Below, piece after piece: positions 2,107 to 59,965 of a stretch of DNA of 59,985 nt. This stretch comes from Escherichia phage vB_EcoS_OddieOddie, in sequence record OL539454.1, one strand, 5' to 3'. Each line of letters starts with the position of its first letter. Within the stretch, counting starts at the first letter, position 1. The notes under the pieces are model-generated. The model had not been told where the DNA came from. It made no database searches and saw only the letters and a program-made list of their open reading frames with translations. The position numbers and the translations under genes were made by a program.

Positions 2107-3603
2107 ATGGGTATTGATGCAACTCACCCGCTATATGACAAGTGGAAGGATGCATGGGTTAAGTGCAACGACTGTTATGAGGGTGAAGATAAAATTAAGG
2201 AAGAAGGTGTTAAATATCTACCACCTTTAGCTTCCATGATTATTGATGGGATGAATAATCCTAATGATTTGGGCTTTCAACGTTGGCTCGCTTATCGCCT
2301 GCGTGCTAACTTCCCTGACGATTATTCAAGTGCGGTCACAAACAATTTAGGTCTGTTGCACCAGAAGCCACCTACAATCCAGCTTCCTCCTGAAATGGAG
2401 TACATGCGGGAGCTGTGTACTGCGGACGGTGAAGACATTATTGCTCTGCTACGTCGCATCAACGAAATGCAGTTAAAAAATGGACGTTTGGGCCTGCTGC
2501 TGGACTTGCCGAAAGGTGAGGATGTAAATAACAGACCTTATATTAGCGTTTATGATGCTTTATCCATTATCAACTGGGATGATGGTAAAGATGAATTAGG
2601 TAATATCAACTTGAACATGGTTGTTCTGGATGAAAGCGGTCCTGTACGTGTCAATCAGTTTGACTGGAAAGAAGAGAAGCGTTATCGCGTCCTGCAATTA
2701 GGCCCGATGGACACAGATGAAGTTGCAGGTGGGGCGGTCTACTCCCAGCATTTGTTTATCAACAATACCAATTATGATGAAGGGCAAATGATTGCTCCTT
2801 ATTATAAAGGTAACACGCTGGACGAAATACCTTTCCAGTTTGTCAATACAACAGATATTACACCAGCACCGGAAGCGCCTCCATTGTTGGGGCTAGCTAA
2901 CATCTGCCTAAGCATGTACCGAAGTGATGCTGATTACCGTCAGAGTCTGCATATGCAGGGGCAGGACACATTAGTTGTTGTTGGCGGCACTGGGGAGAAT
3001 GGAGATAAAGCCCCTCAGCGCATCGGTCCTGGAGCGGTCATTAACGTTGCTATTGGTGGTGACGCTAAATATGTAGGCGTTAGCGGTGACGGTTTGTCCG
3101 AGCAACGCCTTGCACTAGCAGCGGATAAACAAGAAGCTCAGATTAAAGCCGGGCAGATGGTGAACAACACCAAGAGCACGCAGGAATCAGGCGAAGCTAT
3201 GAAAACGCGTATTGCTGCGCGTACCGCTAGCCTGATTCGAATTGCGTATACTGGTGCGGCAGGTTTGGAAAACTTGCTGAAGGTTTGTGCTAAATGGATG
3301 GGTGCGGATCCCGAGAAGGTTGTGGTTAAGCCTAATCTTGAATTTACCAAGAGTATGTTCAATGGTCAGGACTTTGTTCAAATTATTGCTGCACGCAACC
3401 TTAAGGCTCCGATCAGCTTGCAGTCTATTCATGGCTGGCTTGTTGATCAGGGCTTAACCACACTAAGCTTTGAAGAAGAAATGGCAATTCTTGAAGAAGA
3501 GCTTAAGAAGTGGCCTCTGCCCGATGATGCTAAGGCTGATTTAAACGCAGAGCAGCAAGTAAACAAAGATCCTAAGGAAGACGACGCTTCCGATAAAGAA
3601 TAG
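2107..3603 (+). CDS. portal protein
   Basis: 498-aa ORF immediately after terminase, acidic C-terminus, SD GGAGGG upstream; synteny. Confidence 0.7.
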   Translation: MGIDATHPLYDKWKDAWVKCNDCYEGEDKIKEEGVKYLPPLASMIIDGMNNPNDLGFQRWLAYRLRANFPDDYSSAVTNNLGLLHQKPPTIQLPPEMEYMRELCTADGEDIIALLRRINEMQLKNGRLGLLLDLPKGEDVNNRPYISVYDALSIINWDDGKDELGNINLNMVVLDESGPVRVNQFDWKEEKRYRVLQLGPMDTDEVAGGAVYSQHLFINNTNYDEGQMIAPYYKGNTLDEIPFQFVNTTDITPAPEAPPLLGLANICLSMYRSDADYRQSLHMQGQDTLVVVGGTGENGDKAPQRIGPGAVINVAIGGDAKYVGVSGDGLSEQRLALAADKQEAQIKAGQMVNNTKSTQESGEAMKTRIAARTASLIRIAYTGAAGLENLLKVCAKWMGADPEKVVVKPNLEFTKSMFNGQDFVQIIAARNLKAPISLQSIHGWLVDQGLTTLSFEEEMAILEEELKKWPLPDDAKADLNAEQQVNKDPKEDDASDKE

Positions 3604-3698
3604 TTGCAACTTCCAAATTGATTGGTTTATATTAACGAACACGGGGCTGGGACGGCTCAGCCCCAAAAACGTCACACGGGTGACAACGGAGATAAGAA

Positions 3699-4571
3699 AT
3701 GAAAAAGAGTTCTGTAGCTATTAGTGTTGGTTTTGCTCTAATTAATCCACGCGCTCGCGGTGAAGGTGATGTGGAACTGGAATACGAATATGCATCTGCG
3801 GAAGAGATCCCGGCAGAGTTTGCTGCCCTTTACGCAGAGCAGGGTGGTAAATACGTTCTTGCAAAAGTTAAAGGTGTAGCACCTGCTGATAGCGTTCGTC
3901 GTCTGGAAAGTGCATTAGCAAAAGAACGTAACGATCATCGTCAGGTGAAGCAACAGATTAGCGCACTTGGACGTCCGGTTGAAGAAGTTCTTGCGGACCT
4001 TGATCGTATCCCTCAACTGGAAGCTGCCGCTAACGGTAAAGGTACTCCGGAAGACATCGAAAAGATGGTTAAAGCTCGTCTTGCGCCGCTTGAGCGCCAA
4101 TTGCAAACTGTTATCACCGAGCGTGACACGGTTAAGCAGGAAATTGAAGGCTACCGCACTCGCGAAACTAAAGCGAAGATTAAAGATGCAGTTATTGCCG
4201 CTGCTTCTGGTGCTAAATTGCGTCCATCTGCTATCGAAGACGCTGTAACTTATGCACAGTTGCAGATGACCGTCGACGAGAACGGCAATGTGGTTACGAA
4301 AGATGGGGCTGGTGTAACTCCATACCTAACTCCAGCGGATTGGCTTAACGAGATCCTCCCGAAACGTCCTCACTGGGTCGAGGGTTCTGCTGGTGGTGGT
4401 GCATCTGGTCCTGGCGCTGGAGGCCATCACGGTGAAGACCCATACAGTCACGACGGTTGGAACATCTCTAAGCAGATGAACCTCTGGAAAACTAACCAAT
4501 CTTTAGCTAAACGCTTAGCTGAAAAGAATGGCGTAGATCCGCTGAAGCCTGTACGTCCTGCTAAGAAATAA
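3699..4571 (+). CDS. putative scaffolding protein
   Basis: 290-aa charged, helical (K/E/A-rich) ORF between portal and capsid genes; synteny only. Confidence 0.45.
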   Translation: MKKSSVAISVGFALINPRARGEGDVELEYEYASAEEIPAEFAALYAEQGGKYVLAKVKGVAPADSVRRLESALAKERNDHRQVKQQISALGRPVEEVLADLDRIPQLEAAANGKGTPEDIEKMVKARLAPLERQLQTVITERDTVKQEIEGYRTRETKAKIKDAVIAAASGAKLRPSAIEDAVTYAQLQMTVDENGNVVTKDGAGVTPYLTPADWLNEILPKRPHWVEGSAGGGASGPGAGGHHGEDPYSHDGWNISKQMNLWKTNQSLAKRLAEKNGVDPLKPVRPAKK

Positions 4572-4693
4572 GTTGACATCCCGACGTCCCTGATGTTAAG
4601 TTTCAACACATCAGGGACACGGGTTCCTAAACAGCCTTCCACGGGGAAAGGCTACCAACAGTAAACAAATCAATCCTTTTCCTGGAGACAAGT

Positions 4694-5755
4694 ATGTCTA
4701 AATCTAAAATTATTCTACCATTTGGTCGTGGTGAAACTGACCTGACTCGTTTGAAGGATGTCATTGTCCCTGAGATCTTCACTGGTTATGTGCAGACGCA
4801 GACCGCTGAACTTTCTGCCCTGATCCAATCCGGTGCGGTTGTAATGGACGAGCGTTTATCTGCTAACCTTGCTGGTGCAGGTTTGACTTTTAACGAGCCG
4901 TTCTATAATGACCTGAAAGACGAAGACGAAGATATTGCGATCGATAAAGGTGCTCCGTCCAAACCGTCAAACATCACTACCGGATCTGAAGTTCAGGTTC
5001 GTATGAGTCGTTCAAAATCCTGGGGTTCTGCGGATCTGGTATCTGCTTTGATTGGTAACGACCCAATGACCGCTATCGGCAACCGCGTGTCTGCGTGGTG
5101 GGTTCGCCGTCTGCAAGCTGCATACATCGCAACCTGGAAAGGTGTATTTGCTAATGCGAAGAAATCCCATAACGACGATTTGACTTTCGATATTTCCGGT
5201 TCTTCGTTTGTAAACAACCAGACCAACTTTACCGCGTCTAACTTCATCAACGCAACGGCAACGATGGGTGATGCTGCTCGTGGTCTGACCATGATTATGG
5301 TACACTCTACCGTTCGTAACCGTATGCGTCAGTTGAACCTGATCGACTTCATTCCAGATGCTCGCGGTGAAACTCAGTTTGAGTATTATCAGGGTCTGCG
5401 TATTATTGAAGACGACTCCATGCCGCACGATCCGGCTACTGGTATCTTTGAAAGCTGGCTGTTCGGCCCGGGCGCGACTGCAATGGGTGCTGGTTCACCA
5501 AAAGTTCCGACCGCTGTGGTTCGTGACGAAGCTGCTAACAATGGCGCTGGTGAAGAAGTTCTTCACAACCGTGTTGAATGGATTCTGCATCCGGTCGGTC
5601 ATGCTTGGGCTGCTGCCCAAACTGCTAAAGGTGGTCCGTCTAACGCTGCTACCACTAACAACCTGGCCCATGAAGATTCCTGGCGTCGTGCGTTCCCTGA
5701 GCGCAAGCAGCTTAAAGTCGCACGCCTGATCACTCGTGAGTATCAGGGTTCCTAA
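4694..5755 (+). CDS. major capsid protein
   Basis: 353-aa ORF after scaffold candidate, followed by a strong terminator; synteny and size. Confidence 0.65.
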   Translation: MSKSKIILPFGRGETDLTRLKDVIVPEIFTGYVQTQTAELSALIQSGAVVMDERLSANLAGAGLTFNEPFYNDLKDEDEDIAIDKGAPSKPSNITTGSEVQVRMSRSKSWGSADLVSALIGNDPMTAIGNRVSAWWVRRLQAAYIATWKGVFANAKKSHNDDLTFDISGSSFVNNQTNFTASNFINATATMGDAARGLTMIMVHSTVRNRMRQLNLIDFIPDARGETQFEYYQGLRIIEDDSMPHDPATGIFESWLFGPGATAMGAGSPKVPTAVVRDEAANNGAGEEVLHNRVEWILHPVGHAWAAAQTAKGGPSNAATTNNLAHEDSWRRAFPERKQLKVARLITREYQGS

Positions 5756-55980: not shown

Positions 55981-56373
55981 ATGCTATTAGTCGTCACCGG
56001 AGGTCGAGATTTTAAGCATGTGGATTATATTTATGCTCAACTGGATAAGCTGCATATGCAAAGAAGGATAACCACACTTCGCCACGGTGACGCTGACGGT
56101 GTTGACCGGATTTGTGCACATTGGGCGGAGCGCAACGGTATTACGACAGAAGCGTTCCCTGCCCCGTGGGACAATCTTTCCTTACCAAATACCAAGATAC
56201 GGTATAACGCCAAGGGTGCTTATAATGCACAAGCTGGCGCATACCGTAACCAATTAATGCTGGATACTGATCCTAAACCAGATCACGCTATTGTGTTTCC
56301 TGGCGGAGCTGGTACTATGGATATGTACAGACGGATTAAAGCATCCGGTATCCCTTACACATTAGCGGAGTAA
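55981..56373 (+). CDS. Rossmann-like hypothetical protein (possible SLOG/DUF2493-like)
   Basis: 130-aa ORF starting LLVVTGGRD, with HGDADGVD and FPGGAG motifs. Confidence 0.4.
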   Translation: MLLVVTGGRDFKHVDYIYAQLDKLHMQRRITTLRHGDADGVDRICAHWAERNGITTEAFPAPWDNLSLPNTKIRYNAKGAYNAQAGAYRNQLMLDTDPKPDHAIVFPGGAGTMDMYRRIKASGIPYTLAE

Positions 56374-56848: not shown

Positions 56849-57055
56849 ATGGAAACTCCATTAGCTAAACAAATGATAGAGCGTGCGGATCGGGACGGTT
56901 TACCGGAACACCATGCTATGCGTCGAACTGCCCAAGTATTTGACGAAATCAGCGTTAAATATGCGATGGGTAAGAGCACGCCTAAAGATTTATTGGGTGC
57001 TTGGGCTCGCGCTCGACGCTGCTGGTGTAACTATACCGGAGAACCGCTTGTATGA
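56849..57055 (+). CDS. hypothetical early protein
   Basis: 68-aa ORF filling the gap between neighbours. Confidence 0.4.
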   Translation: METPLAKQMIERADRDGLPEHHAMRRTAQVFDEISVKYAMGKSTPKDLLGAWARARRCWCNYTGEPLV

Positions 57056-57474
57056 TAAAACACGTTAAACAGCCAACTTTAAATACATGCGTTTCTGCGT
57101 GTTTGGCAATGATCCTTAATAAACCTGTTGAGAAGGTCATTGAGGAATTTCATAGTCGTTATTATAACAACTGGGAAATCACTATCAGCGAATATTTGAC
57201 TAAAAACGGCGTCAAGCATCATTGTTCAGAAGGTGGTGGGCGTGAAACTTTGCATATGGGAGGTCTGTTCCTGTGCACAGTGCCAAGTCTTAATATTCCT
57301 GGCGCATTGCACCAGATTGTGATCGATATGACGGATCACAAGTTTATTGTGCACGATCCAATTAAAGGATGGGAAGGTAAAAAGTTCTATGTTGGTCCGG
57401 ATCAAGATCCTGAGGAACCTGGAGCTTTTATCATTCATACTTGGGTCAAAGACGTTGAAATCCTACCTTATTAA
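57052..57474 (+). CDS. papain-like cysteine peptidase, C39-like
   Basis: 140-aa ORF with N-terminal QPTLNTCVSACLAMIL resembling the C39 catalytic-Cys motif. Confidence 0.45.
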   Translation: MIKHVKQPTLNTCVSACLAMILNKPVEKVIEEFHSRYYNNWEITISEYLTKNGVKHHCSEGGGRETLHMGGLFLCTVPSLNIPGALHQIVIDMTDHKFIVHDPIKGWEGKKFYVGPDQDPEEPGAFIIHTWVKDVEILPY

Positions 57475-57536
57475 TTTTCTTGCTATCACATAACCCTTCA
57501 TTGTATTGTGTACCCATCGAATAAGAGGGGTACACA

Positions 57537-57722
57537 ATGACCAAACTATACGCCGGATTGTTTTTATTTGCGACGTTAATGTTCGCTGGGCTTTATACCT
57601 ATACAGTAGTCGAACAACCTTCCACGGTTATCCGAATCTTTGCAAGTACAGGGCTTTGCATCTGTCTTATTCTATTTGTTTTATGCATTGTTATTATCCA
57701 AGACCAAAGGAAAGTTAAATGA
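57537..57722 (+). CDS. small two-helix membrane protein
   Basis: 61-aa ORF with SD AGAGGGG; two hydrophobic helices and basic C-terminus. Confidence 0.45.
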   Translation: MTKLYAGLFLFATLMFAGLYTYTVVEQPSTVIRIFASTGLCICLILFVLCIVIIQDQRKVK

Positions 57723-58183
57723 CCACAATTGCGTTTGATGGAAAAGTATTAGCTGCGGACCGTGGCGTTATGCGCGGGGAAGCTGTGACTGCTTATAAGA
57801 AAGTTCATAGCGTGAATGGACATCGTGGACGGTTTTTACTGGGCTTGTGCGGTTTGACGGCATTTACCGATCAGGTGTTGCGTTATTTTAATAGCGCGGA
57901 ACCTGTTAAGTTCCCTGATATTAAACTTTACAGTAAAGATGATGATTACGGGCAAACTTGCGGTCTTGCTGTTACTCCGGAAGGCACTTGCCATTTTATT
58001 TATAATGATGGTACTTTGAGCGAACCCATGCTGGATGGATGGGGTTCGGAGGGTAGCGGTTGTGTGTTTGCCGCTGGTGCGTTGGCTGCTGGTGCGAGCG
58101 CAAGCGAAGCTATTGAGCTGGCTATTAAACATACTACATGCGCATTCCTGGGAGTTGACACAATATCGTTTGAGGGTTTTTAA
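57719..58183 (+). CDS. proteasome-beta/HslV-like Ntn-hydrolase candidate
   Basis: 154-aa ORF starting MTTIAFDGKVLAADRG, matching the N-terminal Thr signature of proteasome beta/HslV subunits; has GSEGSG glycine motif. Confidence 0.45.
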   Translation: MTTIAFDGKVLAADRGVMRGEAVTAYKKVHSVNGHRGRFLLGLCGLTAFTDQVLRYFNSAEPVKFPDIKLYSKDDDYGQTCGLAVTPEGTCHFIYNDGTLSEPMLDGWGSEGSGCVFAAGALAAGASASEAIELAIKHTTCAFLGVDTISFEGF

Positions 58184-58453
58184 ATGACTACATTCAGTCA
58201 CCTGATCCCACCTGCTTATATGAGCAAGGTAGTTGACCACGGGACGCATGTTGTAATTGGTGGCGAAATCTTTATCACAGATAACGAGGAAATCGCCATT
58301 GCAATTATTGACAGCACTCAGCCTGACTTTATGGTTATCCTGCAACACGAACCAGATCAGTTCACTTTTTACTCCAGTTACGGGGTCGACAAAGGTGGAC
58401 AAGATCTTGTTAAGTGGTACATTAACGAATGGTTTGAGCACTGTTCTATCTAG
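58184..58453 (+). CDS. hypothetical protein
   Basis: 89-aa ORF coupled to upstream gene. Confidence 0.4.
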   Translation: MTTFSHLIPPAYMSKVVDHGTHVVIGGEIFITDNEEIAIAIIDSTQPDFMVILQHEPDQFTFYSSYGVDKGGQDLVKWYINEWFEHCSI

Positions 58454-58526: not shown

Positions 58527-58964
58527 ATGGCGCTTCAACCTCGTGGTATTCGTAACAACAATCCAGGAAATATTCGCTGGGGTGACAATTGGCAGGGTTT
58601 AGTACCTGTTGATAAACGAACCGATAAATCTTTTGCACAGTTTACGCAACCGATCTACGGTATTCGTGCTCTAGCTAAAGTCCTGACTAACTACACCAAA
58701 CGCGAAGGCTTACCCAATGTGGGTAAGAAAAATATTGATACTGTACGTGAAATTATCGCTCGCTGGGCACCGCCTAACGAAAACGATACGGAAGCGTATA
58801 TTCGCTCTGTTGCCAAAGCAATTGGTGTTGAACCTAACGATCCAATCAATGTCTTCGACAAGACGATAATGTCAGGTTTGGTAAAAGCAATCATTCGTCA
58901 TGAAAATGGCATGATGCCTTATACGGACGACGTAATTAACCGCGCTATTGCAATGGTACTTTAA
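58527..58964 (+). CDS. candidate endolysin (by position)
   Basis: ATG at 58527 with SD GGAGGA; conserved-looking RGIRNNNPGNIRWG motif; directly upstream of holin and spanin candidates; enzymatic class not identified. Confidence 0.35.
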   Translation: MALQPRGIRNNNPGNIRWGDNWQGLVPVDKRTDKSFAQFTQPIYGIRALAKVLTNYTKREGLPNVGKKNIDTVREIIARWAPPNENDTEAYIRSVAKAIGVEPNDPINVFDKTIMSGLVKAIIRHENGMMPYTDDVINRAIAMVL

Positions 58965-58967
58965 CTG

Positions 58968-59345
58968 ATGGGGCGTCAGCCCCTTTTTATTGGAGGGAAC
59001 ATGTTCAACTCATCGAACGAACATTGGGCAGTTCTAGCGGGGTTTGCGCTGATCTCCCTCATTGGGGGAGCTCTCGGTTACGTCATGCGTACAATTGACG
59101 CTGGTAAGAAGGTACGGATAAGCATTGCATGTCTTGAAGGTTTATCCGCCGCGTTCTTTGGCGTTATAATGTACGCGATCTACAGGGAGTTTAATATCAG
59201 CCTTTGGTTCGCTTTTGGCCTTGCTGGCCTATTCGCTTGGGCGGGTTCACGTGCTACGCTAAAAGCTCTAAAGTCGCTTCTAGCATCGCGGACAGGGATC
59301 AAACTCGACTCAGAGGACTGCAAACATGAAAATGATTCTAAATAA
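58968..59345 (+). CDS. holin-like membrane protein
   Basis: 125-aa ORF with about three hydrophobic helices and charged C-terminus. Confidence 0.45.
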   Translation: MGRQPLFIGGNMFNSSNEHWAVLAGFALISLIGGALGYVMRTIDAGKKVRISIACLEGLSAAFFGVIMYAIYREFNISLWFAFGLAGLFAWAGSRATLKALKSLLASRTGIKLDSEDCKHENDSK

Positions 59346-59802
59346 CTTCTTCAGTTTTATAAAAGCTAAGCCCCGTCTGTTTATCGAGTACCTGATGATC
59401 GGCGCGGTTGTGTTTTTATGCGGAGTGGCTGCTTACCTGTGGTCACAAAACGAGCTTAACAAATCAAATTTAAGCTTAGCTGAAGAACGTTTAACCGTTG
59501 TGGAGAAGGACAATGCTAAGCTGGGCGAAGCTGTTGTATTTCTTGCTGCACAAAGGGAGAAAGATACGGACTCTTTCAAGAAACTAACTTCTGCAATTCA
59601 GAACGAACAACATAACCACAAGTTGCTTCAGGACAAGTTGCAGACACTGGAGAAAAGCAATGCCGACGTCAAAGCTTATCTTAACGAGCGTATTCCTGAT
59701 GATTTGCGCAGGTTGCTCGACGCAGACTCAACCTCCTCCAGCCCCACAGATAGTGAAGGTAAGACTACCCGCACATCTACTGGTGGAATGTCGGGAAGTT
59801 GA
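59326..59802 (+). CDS. inner-membrane spanin (Rz-like)
   Basis: 158-aa ORF; N-terminal transmembrane helix followed by coiled-coil periplasmic region. Confidence 0.5.
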   Translation: MKMILNNFFSFIKAKPRLFIEYLMIGAVVFLCGVAAYLWSQNELNKSNLSLAEERLTVVEKDNAKLGEAVVFLAAQREKDTDSFKKLTSAIQNEQHNHKLLQDKLQTLEKSNADVKAYLNERIPDDLRRLLDADSTSSSPTDSEGKTTRTSTGGMSGS

Positions 59803-59965
59803 GAAAATTCCTTTGGTTTACACAAGAGATATTATCCGACGTTTACAGGATACAGAAACTGCTCTGACTGAATGTAAGCTAAGGGTTAAGGAAATCATAC
59901 GCTATGAAGCTGAAAATGTTTCGCTTGATTTTGTAGGATCAAGCAATTATATTCAGCCTAAATAG
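59660..59965 (+). CDS. outer-membrane lipoprotein spanin (Rz1-like), overlapping the Rz-like gene in another frame
   Basis: 101-aa ORF; signal peptide with lipobox-like ICAGC followed by proline-rich PPPAPQ. Confidence 0.5.
   Translation: MPTSKLILTSVFLMICAGCSTQTQPPPAPQIVKVRLPAHLLVECREVEKIPLVYTRDIIRRLQDTETALTECKLRVKEIIRYEAENVSLDFVGSSNYIQPK

Follow-up and report, generated by a model that had tools for sequence, protein, structure and literature searches.

The window analysed here is the complete 59,985-nucleotide genome of Escherichia phage vB_EcoS_OddieOddie (OL539454.1), a Seuratvirus (Queuovirinae) coliphage, and our subject is a compact cluster of three open reading frames (ORF1 to ORF3) at 57052-58183 on its plus strand, just upstream of the lysis cassette. 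A sequence-only reading of this DNA had put a C39-like cysteine peptidase, a two-helix membrane protein and an HslV/proteasome-beta-like hydrolase at these positions and had taken them for a paired peptidase module. The coordinates proved correct, and both folds, along with the catalytic cysteine of ORF1 and the N-terminal threonine of ORF3, were borne out by profile search, structure prediction and residue conservation. As for the module, we think it probable, though some way from certain, that these are two separate accessory peptidases, each catalytically competent, which lie next to each other by descent rather than as parts of one two-protease machine. The cluster is made up as follows.

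57052-57474, plus strand: ORF1, 140 amino acids (aa), a predicted free-standing C39-like (papain-fold, clan CA) cysteine peptidase
57504-57539, plus strand: a 12-bp RNA hairpin in the spacer between ORF1 and ORF2
57537-57722, plus strand: ORF2, 61 aa, with two hydrophobic helices and a basic C-terminus
57719-58183, plus strand: ORF3, 154 aa, a predicted minimal HslV/proteasome-beta-like threonine peptidase of the N-terminal-nucleophile (Ntn) type

The 1.7-kb region round the cluster shares 95-96% identity with phages KurtStettler, Greed, KS_A3 and CAjan, and its genes are tightly packed, the ATG of ORF1 overlapping the stop codon of an upstream 68-aa ORF and the stop of ORF2 overlapping the start of ORF3 (ATGA). 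When compared with other Seuratviruses at 93-97% DNA identity, ORF3 showed 20-31 synonymous against 0-2 nonsynonymous differences (nonsynonymous-to-synonymous ratio, pN/pS, ≤0.02), ORF1 had a pN/pS of 0.03-0.07, similar to that of the endolysin, and ORF2 had 0-1 nonsynonymous changes. ORF1 to ORF3 are real genes under strong purifying selection and not chance ORFs.

ORF1, whose sequence contains QPTLNTCVSACLAMIL, is annotated 'hypothetical protein' in every phage record seen and belongs to a PHROGs family labelled 'unknown function'. A two-step homologue search gave about 129 relatives, mostly 135-180 aa long; two of them are named 'Peptidase C39 domain-containing' in UniRef, and a distant one (P0142) has a precomputed PF03412 hit. 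In an alignment of 74 sequences, Gln7, Cys13, Cys17, His87 and Asp102 were kept in all 72 full-length members, and the resulting motif, Q-x5-C-x3-C...H...D, matches that of C39 peptidases. We propose that Gln7 would form the oxyanion hole and Cys13 the nucleophile, acting with His87 and Asp102, with the conserved Cys17 placed at i+4. The AlphaFold model is very confident (predicted local distance difference test, pLDDT, 96.4; predicted template modelling score, pTM, 0.90) and has a papain-like alpha/beta fold whose nearest solved structures are C39 domains. Since the family profile matched no PDB chain by sequence alone, the family appears to be a divergent branch, and a search of viral structures with ORF1 returned only uncharacterised phage proteins. 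Judged by its modelled fold and conserved residues, ORF1 looks like a complete, catalytically competent C39-type enzyme.

The best-known members of peptidase family C39 are the exporter domains of PCAT1, ComA and LahT. In contrast to these, ORF1 is free-standing and encoded by lytic phages, and neither an ABC transporter nor a double-glycine precursor peptide was found near it in the window or near 33 related loci; its own sequence has no signal peptide and no transmembrane segment. C39 domains have reportedly also been found, in recent work, to serve as specific intracellular interbacterial toxins that cleave GyrB and ParE. Unlike the toxins StbD-CT (contact-dependent inhibition) and Cpe1 (type VI secretion), ORF1 lacks a domain for delivery or entry and is accompanied by no recognisable immunity gene, and its similarity to these toxins does not exceed that to the exporter C39 domains. 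To our knowledge, every characterised C39 enzyme cleaves after a Gly-Gly-type motif. By analogy, ORF1 would be a cytoplasmic, sequence-specific cysteine endopeptidase with no transporter fusion, most likely cutting after such a motif in one or a few specific proteins, and these are probably host proteins, given that phages of very different kinds carry the gene on its own.

ORF3 starts with MTTIAFDGKVLAADRG and matches PHROG 1040, 'peptidase HslV family' (E = 5e-32), a name that RefSeq already gives to the gene in CAjan, Seurat, slur01 and Nonagvirus phages. A profile built from 18 relatives matched PDB chains of HslV, BPH and proteasome beta (best E 3e-8), and the predicted structure, an alpha-beta-beta-alpha sandwich of the Ntn-hydrolase type, comes nearest to HslV or proteasome beta. 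In an exhaustive profile search the family numbered 11,548 cluster representatives with a cutoff of E ≤1e-3 and 8,075 with E ≤1e-10, overwhelmingly phage-borne, nearly all 140-155 aa long (median 148 aa) and aligned from residue 1. Among the best 150 representatives, 141 carry Thr at position 2 and the other 9 Ser, and 144 begin with 'MT' or 'MS'; Gly45, Gly112 and Gly114 are kept in all 150, Asp14 in 149, Lys28 in 148 and Ser113 in 131. These residues are the equivalents of T1 Asp17, Lys33, Gly47 and Ser129-Gly, and we propose Thr2 (as nucleophile after Met removal), Asp14, Lys28, Gly45 and Gly112-Ser113-Gly114 as the catalytic set. Because of the Met-Thr or Met-Ser start, Met excision alone would expose the nucleophile, as in HslV, so that ORF3 would activate itself and need no propeptide. 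Processing of an ORF3 propeptide by ORF1 was considered and rejected, as ORF3 shares this start with the 144 relatives. On its residues and model, ORF3 looks like a catalytically competent, minimal HslV-like peptidase.

It differs from HslV (ClpQ) in being about 20 residues shorter, with about 21% identity in the structural alignment. Alignments to two HslV structures show a gap of 12-13 residues in place of HslV helix 2 as well as shorter H3-H4 loops, and the ORF3 model has only a loop at residues 59-79. In HslV it is the apical helix-1/helix-2 surface that receives HslU. We found no AAA+ unfoldase among 130 immediate neighbours of HslV-like genes in a Pfam census, and no hslU-like gene near any examined locus. 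With the helix-2 segment missing and no phage-encoded unfoldase, ORF3 would probably be a small self-assembling peptidase that acts without canonical HslU docking, and use of the host HslU is possible. Compared with BPH and Anbu, the orphan bacterial proteasome homologues without a known unfoldase, the phage proteins are shorter (median 148 aa against about 185-230) and form a large sequence family of their own. A recent capture of host hslV was rejected as an origin, E. coli HslV being only a remote homologue (27.6 bits).

One Seuratvirus has a modified copy of this gene. In SeppeHuegi (MZ501104.1; locus 2220-2760, equivalent to window position 57719) the ATG of the HslV-like gene is the precise insertion point of a homing-endonuclease gene, which takes over this codon for itself. 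The HslV-like frame resumes with ATC ACT ACT ATT (Ile-Thr-Thr-Ile), four bases past a Shine-Dalgarno-like GGGGGTG run. In this frame ATG, GTG and TTG are all absent ahead of Met18, the start given in the annotation; elsewhere the gene has 20 synonymous changes and 1 nonsynonymous change. From its sequence, this copy would either start at the ATC and keep its Thr N-terminus, or lack the nucleophile in a viable phage of the BASEL collection.

In order to evaluate whether the two genes belong together, we compared their distribution and gene order. Local hidden Markov models recovered both genes, in unchanged order and with the lysis and terminase genes close downstream, in Seuratvirus, Nonagvirus JenP1, Klebsiella phage Kpn2-P2, Pantoea phage Vid5 and Providencia Craquatrovirus PSTCR7, which are related siphoviruses of 57-61 kb, with 27-39% identity to the window proteins. 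The flanking genes of these carriers are homologous too (endolysin 65%, holin 36-39%, the spanin, small terminase 38-45%), and since the whole arm with its lysis and terminase genes is homologous, the synteny of the pair is largely expected from descent. What lies between the peptidases varies: the 61-aa two-helix protein in Seuratvirus, proteins of 120 and 97 aa in JenP1, a SLOG-domain protein in Vid5, and nothing in PSTCR7, where the two genes overlap by 4 bp. In Kpn2-P2 the intervening gene (3160-3504 of the examined locus) encodes a Mor-like helix-turn-helix protein, with HTH_28 and Mor Pfam matches just below the curated cutoffs, and is annotated 'late transcriptional activator', which hints that the boundary between early and late transcription runs between the two peptidase genes there.

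Beyond these phages the pair comes apart. Within 6 kb, an HslV-like partner was present at 4 of 33 viral loci seeded with the C39-like gene (three Seuratviruses and Vid5) and a C39-like partner at 2 of 80 loci seeded with the HslV-like gene, both Seuratviruses, which leaves 29 and 78 loci, respectively, without the partner. By tblastn, the C39-like gene matched 196 records and the HslV-like gene 59, the former occurring alone in Ackermannviridae, Vibrio podophages, Pseudomonas phages and others. The 'paired peptidase module' of the sequence-only reading therefore recurs within one siphovirus group but fails elsewhere; its intervening membrane protein, present in the window, is replaced or missing in JenP1, Kpn2-P2, Vid5 and PSTCR7, and its statement that such a module is 'not a standard feature' in a phage early region was too strong for ORF3, considering the name already in use.

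The neighbourhoods of the lone genes also differ. Lone C39-like genes adjoin a DNA helicase, a Sak4-like annealing protein, DNA methyltransferases, RusA, or a CI-type repressor with Mu-type transposase A/B, that is, early, replication, recombination, Mu-early or nin-type regions and not lysis cassettes. At 38 or more of 65 loci (at least 58%), a lone HslV-like gene is no more than three genes away from one for a terminase, portal, major head, Ad1, head-tail adaptor or Neck1 protein, and the 130 immediate neighbours in the Pfam census include terminases and portal/connector families. At one such locus (L089) the genes run portal, MuF-like, scaffold, major head, Ad1, HslV-like, Hc1 and Neck1, with portal, scaffold and major head proteins of the same PHROG families (145, 206 and 247) as in the window.

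In the window, small plus-strand ORFs follow one another from about 52.5 kb up to ORF1 to ORF3 and the lysis genes, and beyond the genome ends the series goes on with TerS, TerL, portal, scaffold and major head protein; the genes for replication and modification occupy the opposite strand at 25.7-52 kb. The pair thus sits where the accessory arm meets the late block, which fits the usual habitat of each family and makes 'early-arm', as the cluster had been called, an unverified label. No transcription data were found for the cluster, and a consensus scan of 52.5-60 kb gave no excess of signals (21 promoters against 16.3 +/- 4.4 in shuffled sequence, 5 terminators against 6.1). Under the reading of two separate peptidases, their adjacency would come from an ancestral layout in which an accessory-gene arm meets a lysis/packaging block, one common to Seuratvirus, Nonagvirus, Vid5-like phages, Craquatrovirus and related phages.

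A further gene has to be considered with the pair. It lies upstream, and the neighbours on the other side lead into the lysis cassette.

55981-56373, plus strand: SLOG-domain protein (YspA/cpYpsA-related, PF10686), 130 aa, 680 bp upstream of ORF1
58184-58453, plus strand: ORF4, 89 aa, hypothetical protein
58527-58964: endolysin, in the lysis cassette downstream of the cluster
58968-59345: holin, in the same cassette
59326-59802: Rz-like spanin, in the same cassette

The SLOG protein matches PF10686 with E = 6e-18 and has homologues at two of the loci examined (L010, 2531-3046; L026, 6465-6833), its relatives being variously annotated 'GTP-binding domain' or 'putative DNA binding protein'. The order is SLOG-C39-HslV in PSTCR7 and in the window, where spacer genes intervene, and C39-SLOG-HslV in Vid5; in both PSTCR7 and Vid5 the SLOG gene abuts or overlaps the peptidase genes. 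At another locus (L081) a SLOG gene lies 1.7 kb upstream of the HslV-like gene. No SLOG homologue was found in the arms of JenP1 or Kpn2-P2. It is possible that the SLOG protein is a third associate of the peptidase pair.

The alternative closest to the sequence-only reading is that the two peptidases, possibly with the SLOG protein, form one functional module, for example for anti-defence or host takeover, with the nucleotide-binding SLOG protein and the proteases acting on the same host pathway, or with one protease processing or regulating the other. We regard this as rather unlikely, but several observations speak for it and weigh against two independent enzymes. Although the proteins have diverged to 27-39% identity, adjacency has been kept across Seuratvirus, Nonagvirus, Kpn2-P2, Vid5 and Craquatrovirus, in at least five genera. 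PSTCR7 has overlapping genes, in Vid5 a SLOG gene came to lie inside the pair with the cluster staying intact, and the SLOG gene of L081 is near an HslV-like gene as well; such persistence exceeds what neutral synteny by itself would predict for accessory genes. Caution also applies to the enzymes themselves. ORF1 scores 13.9 bits against PF03412, below the gathering cutoff of 22 and over residues 3-24 only, ORF3 scores 15.4 bits against PF00227 (cutoff 22.4), and what we propose on HslU docking draws on a helix absent from a monomer model and on the position of the HslU-HslV interface. On the other side, the partner is missing from the great majority of loci in both families, the flanking genes are co-inherited so that synteny is expected from descent, two of the arms have no SLOG gene, an ORF3 that begins Met-Thr needs no processing protease, and there were no PADLOC matches. 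On balance we favour two separate peptidases.

Two other explanations were considered. ORF3 could be a late protease linked to morphogenesis, for example one that removes scaffold or trims proteins of the head or connector, in phages whose SPP1/P22-type head module lacks a canonical prohead protease, with ORF1 unrelated to that role. The packaging, head and connector modules in which most HslV-like genes elsewhere are found, the head order at L089 with its shared PHROG families, the co-orientation of ORF3 with the lysis and terminase genes just downstream, and the lack of an annotated prohead protease in Seuratviruses are all consistent with this. However, scaffold-dependent heads of this type do not normally require a protease, the position of the HslV-like gene varies (by terminase, tail fibre or connector) as for a mobile accessory gene, and SeppeHuegi is viable though a homing endonuclease has displaced its ATG, so that we consider this role doubtful. 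That ORF1 is instead a papain-fold amidase or endopeptidase of the cell wall (PeiR or NlpC/P60-like) aiding the adjacent lysis cassette seems very improbable: its best matches and its motif are those of C39 peptidases, it has no signal peptide or transmembrane segment, and its lone homologues avoid lysis cassettes.

With regard to the head genes, the window module (2107-5755) and the corresponding region of KS_A3 (1-24000) carry portal, scaffold and major head protein, and we found no recognisable or annotated prohead maturation protease in the Seuratvirus head module. The same arrangement and PHROG families occur in unrelated contigs with an HslV-like gene between Ad1 and Hc1.

In the literature searched, no paper addresses either gene, and neither protein family has a published function. 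In an Avs2 paper where Seuratvirus and 'protease' both appear, the latter is just part of a protease-inhibitor cocktail; host HslVU figures in a TAC preprint solely as a deletion background, neither gene comes up in the genome and proteome paper on Vid5, and the one paper with the words 'peptidase HslV family' is an unrelated phage characterisation. As such, the fold assignments are not novel, since both proteins belong to known peptidase clans and the ORF3 family name is already in PHROGs and RefSeq. New are the finding that a 'hypothetical protein' has the predicted fold and residues of a full C39-type enzyme, the extent of the HslV-like phage family together with its minimal architecture and conserved catalytic residues, and the evidence that the two families are mostly independent. 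With 8,075 representatives and a near-invariant catalytic set, the HslV-like family is among the larger uncharacterised phage enzyme families; both families are common in phages, and carriers in the BASEL coliphage collection, such as Bas24 SeppeHuegi, are tractable in E. coli K-12. If the two enzymes are independent, the 'hypothetical protein' annotations are corrected and adjacency should not be taken for a system. If it acts as proposed, the free C39 peptidase would extend the C39 toxins that cleave GyrB and ParE from interbacterial warfare to phage-host conflict. A bolder reading, which we hold to be a long shot, is that the HslV-like proteins of about 148 aa are an unrecognised class of late-expressed phage protease tied to SPP1/P22-type heads, acting in virion morphogenesis or removing host proteins and possibly borrowing the host unfoldase, and that in Seuratvirus, Vid5 and Craquatrovirus this class would be coupled with a cytoplasmic, Gly-Gly-directed C39 peptidase and a nucleotide-binding SLOG protein as a host-manipulation or anti-defence cluster of three genes.

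ORF2 has hydropathy peaks at residues ~4-22 and ~33-54 and falls in PHROG 22841 (61 aa, unknown function). It is confined to Seuratvirus-type phages, and we rejected it as an integral component of a module since it is not conserved outside Seuratvirus. The hairpin ahead of it, with arms CAUUGUGUACCC and GGGUACACAAUG, has a minimum free energy of -20.1 kcal/mol (z = -3.6; none of 200 shuffles was as stable), and its 3′ arm includes the ORF2 AUG and part of the ORF2 Shine-Dalgarno sequence; the sequence is identical in SeppeHuegi. This suggests that the hairpin may restrain translation of a possibly toxic small membrane protein or serve as an RNA processing site.

Downstream, the first base of ORF4 follows directly on the ORF3 stop. 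ORF4 (PHROG 23528, unknown function) has a pN/pS of 0.65 and indels between Seuratvirus strains and evolves much faster than its neighbours, and because it is so weakly constrained its membership of the cluster is doubtful; it had no match in Pfam, NCBIfam or PADLOC scans. For ORF1 to ORF4 together, the NCBIfam scan gave nothing meaningful and no PADLOC model matched at E ≤1. An antisense ORF of 201 aa (57836-58441) overlaps ORF3 and ORF4 and is presumably spurious. The 68-aa ORF upstream of ORF1 (56849-57055) is present in the window, KurtStettler, Greed and KS_A3 and absent from CAjan, Seurat, Skure and SeppeHuegi, which explains a class of BLAST hits with 87% coverage. Finally, an ORF at 59660-59965 is embedded in the i-spanin gene and runs past it; its lipobox-like LMICAGCSTQ is consistent with an o-spanin, and the lysis cassette therefore appears complete, with endolysin, holin, i-spanin and o-spanin.
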